A DNA stretch of 19,856 nt from Coleofasciculus sp. B1-GNL1-01. GTDB taxonomy: Bacteria > Cyanobacteriota > Cyanobacteriia > Cyanobacteriales > Coleofasciculaceae. Shown piece after piece: positions 1 through 9,000 of the stretch. Made by a program: the position numbers. The stretch lies in assembly GCA_040220235.1 (NCBI GenBank), contig JAVJTO010000061.1; one strand, written 5' to 3'. How positions within the stretch are numbered: position 1 is the first letter of the stretch; every line of letters begins with the position of its first letter.

Positions 1-3000
1 ACCCGCCCCTACATTAGATTTTTCTCTCAATATCCGATAGATAGATTAACCGGAAATCAGACCGGAAAACCTATTTGATTTCAAAGCGCGATCGCACCCA
101 AAAGGTGTAGGGGCTTTCTTTAGGAATTAAATGAACTAACCTACCTCAAACTTAACAACGAAACCCGCCCTAATCCCCATCCAAATTTGTCGGTTAACCT
201 CAAACCTGATTATAACGGTGCGTTGCGCCGAAAAAAGGATAAATCTTCCTTATCTTCAGCCAACCAGCACCTACAGTACCCTACCCATCTACCCATCTAG
301 GATTGAGTTTTCATAATCCTGACAATCTCGCTGAGGGTTTGCGATACCGATCGCGGATTCCAGCCTAAGTCTTGACGGGCTTTGGTTGCATCAACGCGCA
401 CGCACCGATCATAGACGTAATGAACCCGTTCCCGACTCAGAGGCGGTTGCCAATTCAACAGCCGCCCGATGGGGTCAAGGAGGTTTCCGGCGAGTCTCAC
501 CAAGGGTTTGGGGGCTTCCGCCGGAACCGGAATTCCAGTGTCTTGACTCAGCAGGCTGAACATGTCACGGGTAGACAGATCCCCCGCCGAAATGATATAT
601 TTTTCGCCCGGTTGACCCTTTTGTGCCGCCAGAATCATGGCGCTGGCTAAGTCATCAACGTGGACAATTCCGGTAATGCGATCGCCCCCCGCCCATACTT
701 TTAAGCCGCCTTTGAGAAATTGCTTGAGTACGGGACCAAAATGGGGGTCATCTGCACCAAAGATACCAGACGGGAGAATACTCACCACGGGTAATCCTTG
801 GGTGGCAAATTGGTCTACAATTTGTTGGGCTTGGTATTTGGTGCTGTCATAAGCGCTAGAAAAGTCGGTTTGCTGGCGTTGGAAGGTTTCATTCACGACT
901 TGACCTTTGGTGTCACCAAAAACGCCAATAGTGCTACAGTAGACGAGTTTAGATACACCAACCGCTTGAGCCACCTCTAAAACAGCGCGGGTTCCCTCCA
1001 CATTCACCCGTTCCATTTTCTTGGCATCCACGAGTCCTAATTCCACATACGCGGCGGTGTGAAATACCCAGTCTACCCCAGTCATAGCTGTTTTTAGGGC
1101 GTCGCGATCGCTAATATCGCCGTAAACCAGTTGAATTTGGCAATCTGACAGACGCTGAAGGTTGCTAGACTTGCGGACGAAACCGACAACGCTATCCCCC
1201 CGTTGTTCTAATGCTTTAACTAAATGAGAACCGGTAAATCCATTTGCTCCGGTGACTAGGGCTTTCATCCACACCTCCTGGCTTTTAGTGTTAACCAGCC
1301 TTTGATTCAAACCCAAGGAACCAAAAGCTCAAGTCAGCTTTAGCTGACTGGATAAGAATTCTACTCGACTAAATTGACCGGAGTTTGAACTCCGGGCTGA
1401 TTTTCAGGCTTGCTGACTCTATTCAAATTTTAAGCATAGCCAGGAAATAAATTTCCGGCTGAAAGCTAAAGTAAGCTAAAGCTTACTGGGTAAACCTTTG
1501 AACCCGTTTCAACGGGTTTAAGCTCTTAGCCCGGAGTTTGAACTCCGGGATCTCTCCGGGATCTCCGGGCTCCGGGCAGATTTTCTATTGATTGTGTAAA
1601 AGTTCTCGAATTCGTTGACGAAACAACCGCACGGCTGTTCGCTGCCCTTGGGTATTACTTTGTTCAATAAAACCGGGAATCTCGGTTACAGGTAAAAAGG
1701 GAAACGTCATGCTTTGTTCTCTCTGTTCATATTCTCCTTCGACTAATTGATAAACCTGGAGCGTTTGACGAGTATATCTCCACAATTCCGGAACACCCAA
1801 CGCCGCATAAATAGATTGTTTATCAACAGAGGAACTGGTATAATCTGACTCAATCGCTAAATCAGGCGGTGGATCAATTTCCAGATTGATTCGTCTACCT
1901 CGGACTCGTGATTCATTTTGGATATAGAAGCAGCTATCCGGCTCAATAAAACGAGTTAAATCGTCGCGCTTCAAGCTTAATGAACCTAGACTTCTAAGTT
2001 CGATACCCAATTCATCGACTATGGCTGTCACAAAGTCTTCAAGCAGTCGTTTGGGTTCTTCATGGTCTTCCAGTGGCATTCTAATTTCTAATACTCCCTG
2101 ATCATAAGCCATTCTACAGGCTCGGTCTTCGCCAATTTCCGCCAGTAATGTCTTAAAGGTTTGCCAGCTAACGCCTTTTAAGGTAACGACTGGTTCAGCG
2201 CCCCTTTTCTGGGATTGAGGCGTTGGTGTTGCTGTTGTCATAGTGAACTGCCCTTGATACCTTGATTCAATTGTAGTCCCTGCCTAAGCTGGGCGTGACA
2301 ATCATGTTGATACAAGCATAAGTTAAAGCCTTGAGCAATAAAATATAATACCAGGTAGGGTGGGTTAGGCGGTAATTCAATTCAAAAATCACCGTTTAAT
2401 TCGGTGTCCGCCGTAACCCACCAATCACAAAACTTGTAGTATATTAATGAACAATACTGTGGAAATTGGCGCCAAGTAATTTTCGCGATCGCACACCTGT
2501 GATTTACAAACGCTGTCCCAGTTTCAACCAGGAGAATACCTGTTCAACAGTTAGCTGTAGATTGAGGAAATCTGGCACAGGTAGCCTATCCTCTGATTGT
2601 CGGATAATTTCTGGTAATTGATTGGGATAAAAACAGATTACGGCTTTCTCATTGGGGTCAATCAACCACCCCAACCTGGTTTGATGTCTGAGACAGAATA
2701 AAATATTATCTGTTACCTTGGTTTGTGACTGGTCTGGTGAGAGGATTTCAATTGTCCAATCTGGAGGACATTCAAATACGTTTGCCACTTCTCCATCAGC
2801 ATCGAAGGGAATTCTATCCCATTGAAAGACGGCAACATCTGGCACAATAGAGCGTCCGCTAAACGTGCAGCGTAATTCGGGGAAAGCGTAAGCGATTTTT
2901 TCAGGAAATCCCACCTTGTTTATTGTGTTGGCGAGGCATATTTGTAGTGTGCTGTGTTTCCCTTGTGGCATGGGTTTTTGATAGATTTTACCGTCGATAA

Positions 3001-6000: not shown

Positions 6001-9000
6001 GGCGAGCATAACGACGCAGTTTACGGGCTAAGTCCTCAGCATCACAGTGGCGATAGGCTCTCACCCGCACACGCGGACTATGACCAAATAACTTTCCAGA
6101 ACGAGTTCCCGCGTTGACGACGGCTGAGAGAATACAGCCATGGTTGAGGACATCAGTCAAAATTAATGTCTCACGGGTATGCTGAAAGCCAGGAACGGGA
6201 ATAGCCAAATGGCAGAACGCATCCATCAGGGCTTGCATCGCCATCCACGCATTCAAAAAGAGTTGGGTATGGGGTAGGTGCTTAAACTCCGAAATCTCTT
6301 GCTCAAGCTGCCGATGCAAATCGATGCGACCACTGAGGACTGAGGTTGAACTGTTGGACGTACCGTATTGAAAAATAGCATCAACCGCTGCTTGGCGAAC
6401 CGCCTCGTTCTGAACCAGACCCAAGACATCATTCGTACAGAACGTGAGAACCGTCTGACGCTTTCCTGTGGCGACTGATTCTATCTCGACTAAATTCCCT
6501 TGCTTTTGATGGCAAACATATTCGTCGGGCGCTAATCCACTTTCGTACCACCGCTGGACGTACTCTTTGACAACTTCCACAACCTTACTCCTCTCACCTT
6601 TTCCTAGATAGACTACCGCTTCTAGCTAAAAATGTGTGTTTTTCTCTCAACTTTAAGTGATTATCCCGACTGAATATCAAGCTCCATGTTGGCGATTTTA
6701 TAGAGTACACGGTAATCCTATATAATACGGGGTGATTGGACAGGGCGGCTTATGACAGACAATAACGCTGGCACATTGGCGATCGCTCTCGTTGCTGCTT
6801 TTTTGATTTCTGCTCTAGCAGGGTAGCATAAAACGCAGCCCCCTGCGGGATTTGTTTTAATCCAAGCCTCCGGAATACCCCACTCGCCTACGGGGTGCGG
6901 AGTGATCAAGGAGGTGGTTGAGTGGGTTTGGATGCCCCTGAAACCATTAACTCCGTTGAATGAGCAACGGCACGACAGTGGCGATTTGCGCTTGGACTTT
7001 GCTCACAGTATGTACAACGGGCATACCAAAACTGCCTAAATAGGGTCTGCTGAATAAGGGTTGTGGTGAGGGGAAGCTGGGGAAGCTGGGGAAGTAGGGG
7101 GAGGGAAAGTTATATCTTGGAATTTGGTATAAATACCATGCTAGGTTTGGATATAGCGCCTTTGCTAGGGCAACGCTACGATTAGTTGCGATCTGATCGC
7201 CCTTAGATTTTATCGGGAGATAAGATACTGTTTTAAAACTATACGCGATCGCCAAACAAAATGGGGTATGTTTTTCCTCGGAATCGCGTTATTCATATCC
7301 TTGAACAAGCTGTTGCCGTTCGGCGTCTTTAGCCTTTTATTTTATTCAACAATTTTGAATTTGTTGTCGTCTGGCTGCTTGCAATTTAGGATTATTTATA
7401 ATCTTTTAATTTAACGGCTAAACATCGAGCCAAATTTCCCACTATTGCCAGCCAGCATTTCTCCCCATTAGGCAATTCATTCCCTAGTAGAGGCACGACA
7501 TGTCGTACCCCTACAGGTAGCTCACTCTTACTCCTACACTCTCACACCTCTACACTCAGGCAATTTCAACCGAAAACCTTTCGTGCAATTGTCCTTAACC
7601 TGTCGGTTGAGACGACGCCGGTTGAGATGATGCCGAATTCAATTTAGGAGCAGTTATTGGCGGCGAGGCAGGTGGTTTTTCTTCCCATCCTGGAGGCGCA
7701 AACTGGGGCAAAATTTCCCGGCTGAAGGCTTCGGCAGCTTTGGAACGGTAGCGATGGGGATTGACGATTAAAGACAGCGTTCGCTTCACCACGACGCCTT
7801 CTATCGTTGCTCGATGTAAAACACCCATTTGCAATTCTTTTTCGATGGCTGAAATAGACACAAACGCTGCACCCAATCCCGATTGCACGGCGTTTTTAAT
7901 TGCCTCAATTGAGTTGAGTTCCATCTCAATCTTCAGGCGGCGGGTATCAATATCACAGCGCGTGAGAACCTGGTCGATTACCTTACGAATCGTGGATTGG
8001 GAGTCGAGCGCAATAAATTGTAACTTATACAAATCCTCCTTATGCACAGTTCCCACTTTTGCCAGGGGGTGAAAGACAGGTAAAATTAGCGCCAACTCGT
8101 CTTCCGAGTAAGGCATAATATGTAAAGTTTCTTGAAGTTCCGTGGGGACTTCACCGCCAATGATGGCTAAATCTACCTGTCCATTGGAAACAGACCAAGA
8201 AGTACGGCGCGTCGAGTGAACTTGTAATTGTACCGACACATCGGGATACTTCTGTCGAAACAAGCCAATCATCCGAGGTAAGAGATAGGTTCCCGTGGTT
8301 TGAGACGCGCCTACAATCAGCGTCCCACCCTGGAGATTTTGTAAATCCTCAATCGCCCGACAGGTTTCCTGACAAAGGGTGAGAATTTTTTCACCGTAGC
8401 TTAGGAGTAAGTGTCCGGCTTCTGTCAATTGAGCGCGACGCCCGCCTCGGTCAAATAAGGGGACATCAAGCTGTCGTTCCAAGTTTTGCACTTGTAAACT
8501 CACAGCCGGTTGGGAAACGTACAAACTATCCGCCGCACGTTTAAAACTCCCCTCAGAAGCGATTGCTTTGAGAATGCGGAGTTGATCGAGAGTGAAAGGA
8601 AGGTCAGACATAGGAGCTAAACCATCAAAAAAGGAGCAATAACAGGCAATCCCAGGGGGGTTGAAGATGGGATTTAACGTCAACGATAGTAGGAATTGCC
8701 AAAAACGAACGTGTAAACCTGTGCCTGAAATCGACAGTAACACAACACGGGATCAAGTCCTTGAGTATTCTTGCTAGGATGAATTGGGCAACGAATCGAC
8801 ATCAGGATTTATGGGGGTCTGGACTAACGTGACATTCAGTCATTGGGTAATGGCTGGACTGCTTTTGAGCTTTGCGATCGCGCATAGTGGTCTAGCTGCA
8901 CTACGACCTTGGGCTGAACAACAGATTGGCGCGAGGTTCTATCGAATTTTATTTGCTCTGGTTAGCCTATCTCTTGCTGTTGTATTAATTATTTACTTTT

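Follow-up and report, generated by a model that had tools for sequence, protein, structure and literature searches.

The closest described systems are the ceramide pathways of Proteobacteria (Caulobacter crescentus, E. coli BL21), which consist of Spt, the acyltransferase bCerS (Aca/YghO) and the reductase CerR (Epi), together with AcpR and AasR. In E. coli BL21, yghO lies side by side with genes for an acyl-AMP ligase, an epimerase-family protein, an ACP and Spt. The passages of PMC9386255 on these genes equate them with the ceramide genes of Caulobacter, and list YghO (ECD_02850) with Caulobacter CC_1154 as 'aca'. The roseoceramide (rcc) cluster of Roseovarius tolerans is described as homologous to the Caulobacter cluster in synteny and sequence, and in vitro work confirmed the activity of its Spt, RccD (PMC11789144).

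For cyanobacteria, PMC8895605 cites two ceramide-type lipids, an acetylsphingomyelin from Scytonema julianum and a cerebroside from Moorea producens. An earlier note on the DNA studied here, which predicted a lipid class not known from cyanobacteria, was therefore too strongly worded. According to the passages of PMC8895605 on this subject, sphingolipid-type lipids of cyanobacteria have no known genetic basis and no known enzymes. Only one study has looked into this, and the enzyme tested there was the BioF-type enzyme of a Nostoc strain, which is said to have no second alpha-oxoamine synthase (AOS), so that the gene set described below could not have been found.

The gene set in Coleofasciculus and its inheritance

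The window, i.e., the whole analysed stretch of 19,856 nt from Coleofasciculus sp. B1-GNL1-01, carries the set on the minus strand, with all three genes at the positions given earlier. The first enzyme is a PLP-dependent AOS of 426 aa (5300-6580; Pfam Aminotran_1_2, 112 bits). Only 36 nt separate its stop codon from the start of the second gene (4130-5263), which encodes a tandem-GNAT N-acyltransferase of 377 aa, assigned to the bCerS/YghO ('aca') family by YghO homology and predicted fold. The third gene (297-1268) encodes an extended SDR of the 3-beta-HSD/HpnA-like type (Pfam Epimerase, 137 bits, and 3Beta_HSD). Its ORF spans 297-1316; because orthologues begin to align at residue 13-17, translation probably starts from the ATG at 1268.

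As reported before, three Uma2-family genes (Pfam PF05685) lie between the acyltransferase and reductase genes, also on the minus strand, at 3180-3845 (81.8 bits), 2504-3073 (109.6 bits) and 1585-2241 (74.2 bits). The first and the last of these copies are 67% identical to each other, and the inserts lie outside the pathway. A MITE-like element with 35-nt terminal inverted repeats (3877-4134; arms at 3877-3911 and 4100-4134, 91% complementary) abuts the stop codon of the acyltransferase gene. The bin of this element showed very high contig depth in RNA-library runs, and a terminator-like hairpin is located at 4006-3988 on the minus strand. For the small ORFs upstream of the AOS gene no conservation was found. 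In this genome the set is present in three pieces: the AOS and GNAT genes, the reductase gene behind the Uma2 inserts, and genes for a Rieske oxygenase and an MFS transporter, which are located on contig C17 and not in the window.

Among 401 Cyanobacteriota genomes, an identical set of 28 has orthologues of the acyltransferase (at least 57% identity), the AOS (at least 72%) and the reductase (at least 63%). AOS orthologues in the 27 other genomes are 72-87% identical, and SDR orthologues (63-83%) are present in exactly those genomes that hold the AOS and GNAT genes. In 21 of 27 cyanobacterial loci the AOS gene immediately precedes the GNAT gene, and in 14 of 27 the SDR gene follows the latter at most 1.5 kb downstream, similar to the counts of the earlier note (51 and 50 of 80, respectively); in locus L133 the GNAT and SDR genes share a 4-nt overlap. 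The co-occurrence persists where the genes are unlinked, for example in genomes G017, G220, G190, G008 and G092. As the same genomes hold all three genes even when these are far apart, the AOS, acyltransferase and reductase genes are functionally linked, in agreement with their description as one functional set.

The earlier note left out the Rieske oxygenase and the MFS transporter, which are parts of the module in most carriers. Of the 28 carrier genomes 21 have a Rieske orthologue, compared with none of the other 373 Cyanobacteriota genomes, and its gene still adjoins the AOS gene when the AOS and GNAT genes are unlinked. Among NCBIfam models, SdmA comes nearest to the Rieske protein (239 bits), and HpnA (207), SdmB (145) and OleD (117) come nearest to the reductase, the latter three as previously noted and all below cut-off. 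With the sterol C-4 demethylation pair SdmA/SdmB and HpnA as nearest named models, a lipid substrate is indicated. These matches would also suit a model in which the Rieske protein and the reductase, paired like SdmA and SdmB, act on a triterpenoid lipid of the hopanoid type, with AOS and GNAT serving that pathway. We consider this highly improbable, as the scores are far under the cut-offs (SdmA 600, HpnA 368, SdmB 600), the two proteins are accompanied in the genomes by an AOS and a GNAT and not by cyclases, the link between AOS and GNAT is general across phyla, and seven of the 28 carriers have no Rieske gene, yet keep the other three genes. Moreover, an AOS is not known to act in hopanoid or sterol pathways.

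A bCerS-family acyltransferase with a divergent AOS and reductase

The 377-aa protein had been described as a bCerS relative without any Pfam or NCBIfam family. This was correct for NCBIfam, whereas in Pfam a weak match to Acetyltransf_1 is found (24.6 bits, cut-off 20.7). Compared with E. coli BL21 YghO, which was used as stand-in reference for Caulobacter bCerS, the protein shows 30% identity over its full length (residues 5-377, E 1e-54). The AF2 model (pLDDT 94.1, pTM 0.91) has tandem GNATs as top Foldseek matches, namely MAB_4324, 2wpw of the clavulanate pathway and the mycothiol synthase MshD (E 3e-15 to 7e-12, query TM-score 0.58-0.62 against the solved structures). The two-GNAT-domain fold is common to all of them, but sequence identity is only 13-15%, and those enzymes transfer acetyl to small amines. 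The acyltransferase thus belongs, over its whole length, to the tandem-GNAT family of bCerS and YghO, which upholds the bCerS relationship claimed before.

Homologues in 80 family loci of other phyla are 31-40% identical to the acyltransferase. An AOS gene was found in 48 of these loci, an SDR gene in 38 and both in 36; natural AOS-GNAT fusion proteins (P0190, P0194) as well as a GNAT-acyl-AMP-ligase fusion protein exist. The genomic tie of the family to an AOS is found here as well, but the partner AOS belongs to a different clade. Since the other 32 loci have no AOS within 8 kb, the family may also be used for other N-acylations. For the cyanobacterial enzyme we predict from its family that it probably transfers a long-chain acyl group from a thioester to the amine of a 3-keto long-chain base.

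The AOS scores of the earlier note were reproduced exactly. The protein is below every NCBIfam equivalog cut-off, with 228.5 bits for bioF (cut-off 426), 189.7 for Kbl and 170.2, 162.7 and 114.1 for three Spt models (cut-offs 640, 500 and 670), and the true BioF is indeed encoded elsewhere in the genome (contig C91, 464 bits with the bioF model). The catalytic residues are intact (His147, Asp233, His236, Thr271, Ser273, Lys274, Arg393). Four of them, His147, Asp233, His236 and Lys274, align with His138, Asp210, His213 and Lys244 of S. multivorum SPT, the roles of which were taken from PMC10196870. First-shell pocket positions differ, however: the positions of the Tyr of the NxYLGL motif and of the Gly-Ser-Arg loop line the amino-acid site in S. 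multivorum SPT and in the cysteate acyltransferase (PMC10196870, PMC13692747). All 18 cyanobacterial copies carry NDV/ILG(L/F), with Val or Ile replacing Tyr, and Ser-Cys/Thr-Ser in the loop, whereas the Tyr is kept in 46 of the 47 AOS adjoining family members whose motif variants were compared, and also by Spt, Kbl and BioF of E. coli as references.

All 47 scored AOS beside family members in other phyla match the Spt model best, with 430-610 bits compared to 170 for the cyanobacterial AOS. In a quick tree (SH-aLRT 93-94), E. coli Spt and these 47 Spt-like proteins form a clade to which the cyanobacterial AOS does not belong; the stem of the latter is long, with 1.49 substitutions per site. 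Its assignment as an Spt-like enzyme was rejected in view of tree position, Spt scores and pocket motifs. By its sequence the AOS is placed in a cyanobacteria-specific clade, which agrees with the earlier view of a separate clade whose amino-acid substrate was left open.

The reductase translation contains the GxxGxxG (TGANGFTG) and YxxxK (YDSTK) motifs, and the protein is the candidate keto-reductase of the set. Its identity to E. coli Epi is only 24% (E 4e-14), and in 38 of 39 cases the reductases beside canonical clusters are nearer to Epi than to the cyanobacterial one. Orthology to CerR/Epi was therefore rejected. The term 'Spt/bCerS/CerR-type' used before holds for the bCerS part, but overstates the case for the other two of the three genes, because the AOS differs from Spt in clade and pocket and the reductase is no CerR orthologue.

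The same data bear on whether the set could be an ordinary Spt/bCerS/CerR pathway that forms true dihydroceramide from serine and a palmitoyl thioester, which would be a special case of the explanation favoured below. Among proteins of solved structure, the AOS matches S. multivorum SPT best (139 bits), in which the serine hydroxyl is recognised mainly via the PLP phosphate and water molecules (PMC10196870), so that the pocket changes need not exclude serine. The clear bCerS-family membership of the GNAT enzyme and the ceramide-based lipids reported for two cyanobacteria (PMC8895605) fit as well. However, the position of the AOS outside the Spt-like clade and far under every Spt cut-off, the conservation of the pocket substitutions in all copies and the missing orthology of the reductase make this version doubtful.

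Proposed pathway and its meaning

We favour a variant ceramide-type pathway, which is predicted to yield a ceramide-like N-acyl long-chain amino-alcohol lipid with the head group left general, and give this reading a probability of roughly 60%. All enzymatic steps are inferred. In the first step the divergent AOS would catalyse the condensation of an amino acid and a fatty acyl thioester, giving a long-chain alpha-amino ketone; serine is possible, and another amino acid is about as likely. Because cyanobacteria activate fatty acids as acyl-ACP, this is probably the acyl donor. The bCerS-family tandem-GNAT enzyme would then add a second acyl chain to the amine, and the HpnA/3-beta-HSD-like reductase would reduce the keto group. 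In three quarters of the carriers the Rieske oxygenase probably hydroxylates or desaturates the product, and the MFS protein may move it. In the gene neighbourhood, no dedicated ACP or acyl-ACP synthetase was found in the cluster, which counts against a ceramide-type reading.

The product could instead be an exported small metabolite or signal and not a membrane lipid. It would then be an alpha-amino ketone or amino alcohol carrying a short- or medium-chain N-acyl (or N-acetyl) group, with tailoring by the Rieske enzyme and export by the MFS protein. The transporter is of the drug-exporter type, and in 10 of 20 related loci, though not in the window, its gene adjoins the cluster in divergent orientation; a GH3 adenylating enzyme is encoded nearby in 5 of 21 loci, and the AOS falls in no lipid-specific clade. 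Among the nearest neighbours in a language-model search, which serve as a lead only, were divergent AOS clusters including alpha-hydroxyketone autoinducer synthases. On the NCBIfam autoinducer synthase model, however, the AOS reaches only 97 bits (cut-off 428), and the full-length similarity of the acyltransferase to members adjoining Spt-like enzymes argues for a lipid. In addition, the AOS is conserved nearly as well as chorismate synthase of the same genomes (87/82/72/80/75% versus 90/87/81/82/81%), and identities track housekeeping divergence, unlike typical secondary-metabolite clusters. An exported metabolite is thus unlikely.

Within the favoured ceramide-type pathway, a more far-reaching proposal is possible, if tentative: an undescribed sphingolipid-like lipid class in many cyanobacterial families, made with a long-chain base from a non-serine amino acid, a lineage-specific AOS, acyl-ACP, a bCerS relative, a non-CerR reductase and Rieske oxygenation, the module being an ancient one of the phylum with many losses. 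The proposal is favoured by the identities following housekeeping divergence and by a tree in which the acyltransferase clusters with homologues from other Cyanobacteriota classes (SH-aLRT 99). The gene set provides a concrete candidate basis for cyanobacterial sphingolipid-type lipids and names 28 of 401 sampled species as carriers. If cyanobacteria make an amino-lipid of their own, it could also be used as a lipid biomarker for the mat-forming members of the group.

Comparison with known pathways

In the sulfonolipid pathway (CFAT/SulA/CapB), which is sphingolipid-like, the amino acid is not serine, and the AOS that supplies it belongs to a clade distinct from Spt. The loop positions Gly81 and Ala82 of the cysteate fatty acyltransferase line its side-chain pocket (PMC13692747); the cyanobacterial AOS has Ser-Thr/Cys there and scores lower with CFAT (98 bits) than with SPT. 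The rcc cluster differs by its canonical Spt and has an accessory phosphodiesterase and an MsbA-like transporter instead of the Rieske and MFS proteins (PMC11789144). In a Sulfitobacter MAG (locus L077) the genes are ordered AOS-GNAT-SDR, just as in cyanobacteria.

With the proteobacterial ceramide pathway the cyanobacterial set has the three reaction types in common (AOS, tandem GNAT, extended SDR) and an acyltransferase that is homologous over its full length. In contrast, the cyanobacterial AOS does not fall in the Spt clade and its pocket is altered, the reductase is no orthologue of CerR, and the cluster is without its own ACP and acyl-ACP synthetase; a Rieske oxygenase and an MFS protein come in addition. 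The AOS and the reductase that pair with a bCerS-type acyltransferase can thus differ in origin, which bears on how bacterial ceramide-type pathways were assembled.

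Gene content and local rearrangement

The earlier note had described a three-gene set in this contig, and this observation was borne out as a whole, since the AOS (alpha-oxoamine synthase), GNAT acyltransferase, SDR (short-chain reductase) and Uma2 genes together with their model scores were re-found in the window. All of them are encoded on the minus strand. The AOS (426 aa, 5300-6580) matches Pfam Aminotran_1_2 and misses all NCBIfam equivalog cut-offs, with 228.5 bits for bioF (cut-off 426), 189.7 for Kbl and 170.2, 162.7 and 114.1 for the serine palmitoyltransferase (Spt) models. 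It is followed after 36 bases by the GNAT gene (377 aa, 4130-5263), which gave a weak Pfam GNAT match (24.6 bits) and no NCBIfam family. The extended SDR (297-1268) comes nearest to the NCBIfam models HpnA (207), SdmB (145) and OleD (117) without reaching any of their cut-offs. Apart from the window AOS, the genome (8.66 Mb, 172 contigs) encodes just one such enzyme, the true BioF of contig C91, which reaches 464 bits on the bioF model (cut-off 426). Judged by how its closest protein relatives are named, the organism falls among filamentous cyanobacteria of the Coleofasciculaceae type. The window also carries a 375-aa AstE/AspA-type (M14-like) deacylase without NCBIfam family (16272-17399), for which no link to the gene set is visible.

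The GNAT-SDR junction is interrupted by three Uma2 genes (3180-3845, 2504-3073 and 1585-2241), two of which are paralogues with 67% identity. MITE-like elements at 3877-4134 (35-nt terminal inverted repeats, 91% complementarity) and 1332-1548 (21 nt, 90%) are located in the intergenic gaps around this insert and flank its junctions. They are multi-copy, because contig depth of their bins in RNA-library runs is 10-40x that of the neighbouring bins. In addition, a terminator-like hairpin 3' of the GNAT gene suggests that the SDR is probably transcribed apart from it. Contigs from three RNA-library runs, derived from a relative with ~94-96% identity, span the SDR, Uma2, GNAT and AOS genes; as these are contigs and DNA carry-over is possible, they were discounted as expression evidence. 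The relative's contigs join 6883 to 7473 with three different letters in between, therefore the 589-bp stretch 6884-7472 was either inserted here or deleted there. It contains an ORF upstream of the AOS (6947-7255, 102 aa), which is unconserved and without Pfam match. The short ORFs that precede the AOS in five sources are mutually dissimilar, and a dedicated ACP was not found among them.

Co-inheritance and additional genes of the module

Each of the three window proteins was used as query against 401 Cyanobacteriota genomes, with orthologue identity floors of at least 57% for the GNAT, 72% for the AOS and 63% for the SDR. The genomes with orthologues are the same 28 for all three proteins and include the present one; the remaining 373 have none. 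The AOS directly precedes the GNAT gene in 21 of the 27 other carriers, and the SDR follows within 1.5 kb downstream in 14; a 4-nt overlap joins the GNAT and SDR genes in one locus (L133). The AOS-GNAT pair is more than 1 megabase away from the SDR in G008 and G092, the three genes lie on three contigs in G220 and G190, and in G017 they are separated by hundreds of kilobases and all still present. AOS, GNAT and SDR genes form one functional set, and this holds even where they are dispersed. In the same five carrier genomes AOS identities of 87, 82, 72, 80 and 75% compare with 90, 87, 81, 82 and 81% for chorismate synthase, and such conservation near the chorismate synthase level fits a strongly constrained gene that was inherited vertically and lost repeatedly.

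Distant GNAT homologues alone (27-34% identity) occur in 16 further genomes from other classes of Cyanobacteriota. With the queries used, no AOS or SDR was detected within ~4 kb of such homologues in six loci, where the neighbours are MacB/HlyD, or MMPL and an AMP-binding enzyme. In the loci L162 and L165 the homologues, with no AOS in the neighbourhood, adjoin an AMP-binding enzyme and an MMPL transporter, or HlyD and two MacB/FtsX permeases, which is a lipid-export context.

A wider neighbourhood survey took in the window and 20 cyanobacterial loci. The AOS is immediately preceded by a Rieske/VanA_C oxygenase gene in 11 of these 21 loci; a divergent MFS transporter is likewise encoded in 11 and a GH3-family adenylating enzyme in five (L133:14831-16525 and four more). 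The nearest NCBIfam model of the Rieske protein is SdmA (239, cut-off 600), and the GH3 protein matches OlsH, a lyso-ornithine lipid synthetase, and no other model (100 bits, cut-off 620). Of the 28 carriers 21 have the Rieske orthologue, against 0 of the 373 other genomes, and its gene remains beside the AOS where AOS and GNAT genes are unlinked. In the present genome the genes for the Rieske oxygenase and the MFS transporter form a divergent pair on another contig (C17:72984-75321, locus L160), surrounded by housekeeping genes (Dus, Mur ligase, CysS) and another Uma2 gene, and a GH3 copy with 69% identity is located at C153:22302-23987. The Rieske oxygenase and the MFS protein belong to the module in most carriers.

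Relation of the three enzymes to canonical ceramide synthesis

By homology the window acyltransferase is a bona fide member of the bacterial ceramide synthase (bCerS) family. It shares 30% identity over its whole length (E 1e-54) with YghO of E. coli BL21, used as stand-in for the Caulobacter bCerS; according to PMC9386255, yghO corresponds to CC_1154 of Caulobacter. The AlphaFold model (pLDDT 94.1) has a tandem GNAT fold and resembles the tandem GNATs MAB_4324, the clavulanate-pathway protein 2wpw and MshD. Atlas look-ups returned generic names and nothing more specific.

At E <=1e-3 the family comprises 6676 cluster representatives, of which 1007 remain at E <=1e-30. Among 80 family loci from many other phyla (none from Caulobacter), obtained with an 11-sequence alignment, an AOS lies within the flanks in 48, an SDR in 38 and both in 36. 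Natural AOS-GNAT fusions exist (P0190, 780 aa; P0194, 777 aa; P0251, N-terminally cut), P0259 is a GNAT fused to an acyl-AMP ligase domain, and one family member is named 'Hypothetical protein associated with Serine palmitoyltransferase' in its source. In E. coli BL21(DE3) yghO and spt adjoin genes for a fatty acyl-AMP ligase, an epimerase-family protein and an ACP, and PMC9386255 names the five aca (yghO), aasR, epi, acpR and spt. In the family tree the path to homologues beside Spt-like enzymes is ~1.9 for the cyanobacterial proteins, compared to 3.1 for YghO. Other architectures include two bCerS-like units in tandem (P0125, 784 aa) and an N-terminal PilZ domain (P0141 and P0254), the latter hinting at possible c-di-GMP control of some family members.

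For the AOS, 47 of the 48 enzymes beside family members in other phyla were scored, with one short match left out. SerpalmtaseCFB is the best model for all 47 (430-610 bits), whereas the window AOS and two other cyanobacterial copies reach ~170 bits on it. In a tree of 66 rows (alternate cyanobacterial rows omitted; quick IQ-TREE search, LG+G4) the cyanobacterial AOS come out as a single clade (SH-aLRT 100) whose stem measures 1.49 substitutions per site, and they are excluded from the clade that unites the 47 Spt-like enzymes with E. coli Spt (support 93-94). A weak placement of the cyanobacterial clade next to two long BioF-like branches (support 64) is unreliable. The catalytic residues are retained. 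Each of the 18 cyanobacterial copies examined has NDV/ILG(L/F) in place of N(N/D/S)YLGL and Ser-Cys/Thr-Ser in place of the Gly-Ser-Arg loop, whereas the motif Tyr is kept by the E. coli Spt, Kbl and BioF references and by 46 of 47 adjacent AOS with motif variants listed. In S. multivorum SPT the PLP-serine adduct is surrounded by a network that involves the corresponding positions Asn52/Tyr54 and Gly80/Ser81 (PMC10196870), and in cysteate acyltransferase the side-chain pocket is shaped by Gly81 and Ala82 (PMC13692747). Both altered motifs line the amino-acid site, so that the substrate may be serine or another amino acid. Judged by sequence, the cyanobacterial AOS is lineage-specific and not Spt-like.

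The window SDR belongs to the 3-beta-HSD/HpnA type of extended SDRs, and both its cofactor motif and its catalytic motif are intact. It shares 24% identity (E 4e-14) with E. coli epi, the canonical ceramide reductase (CerR), and 38 of 39 reductases beside canonical clusters score better with epi than with the window protein; the latter is no CerR orthologue. Because it is strictly co-inherited with AOS and GNAT, it is a candidate for a role in the gene set. A literature search on PDB entry 3wj7, the closest solved reductase, gave nothing relevant.

A probable cyanobacterial variant of the ceramide-type pathway

In our search, which did not extend to Stankeviciute 2022 and the supplement of PMC11334938, a published description of the cyanobacterial module was not found and PMC8895605 was the sole relevant paper. 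It reports that the BioF-type AOS of Nostoc punctiforme, a strain stated to lack any further AOS, yielded neither keto-sphinganine nor sphingolipids when assayed. It also mentions two such lipids from cyanobacteria, an acetylsphingomyelin (Scytonema julianum) and a cerebroside (Moorea producens), with the genetic basis stated as unknown.

We interpret the gene set, with a probability of roughly 0.6, as a predicted cyanobacterial variant of the ceramide-type pathway. The earlier assignment to an Spt/bCerS/CerR-type set holds for the acyltransferase but not for its two partners, as the AOS falls outside the Spt clade and the reductase is not orthologous to CerR. Compared to the canonical clusters, the variant combines a bCerS-family acyltransferase with a lineage-specific AOS and a non-orthologous reductase, joined in most carriers by the Rieske oxygenase and the MFS transporter.
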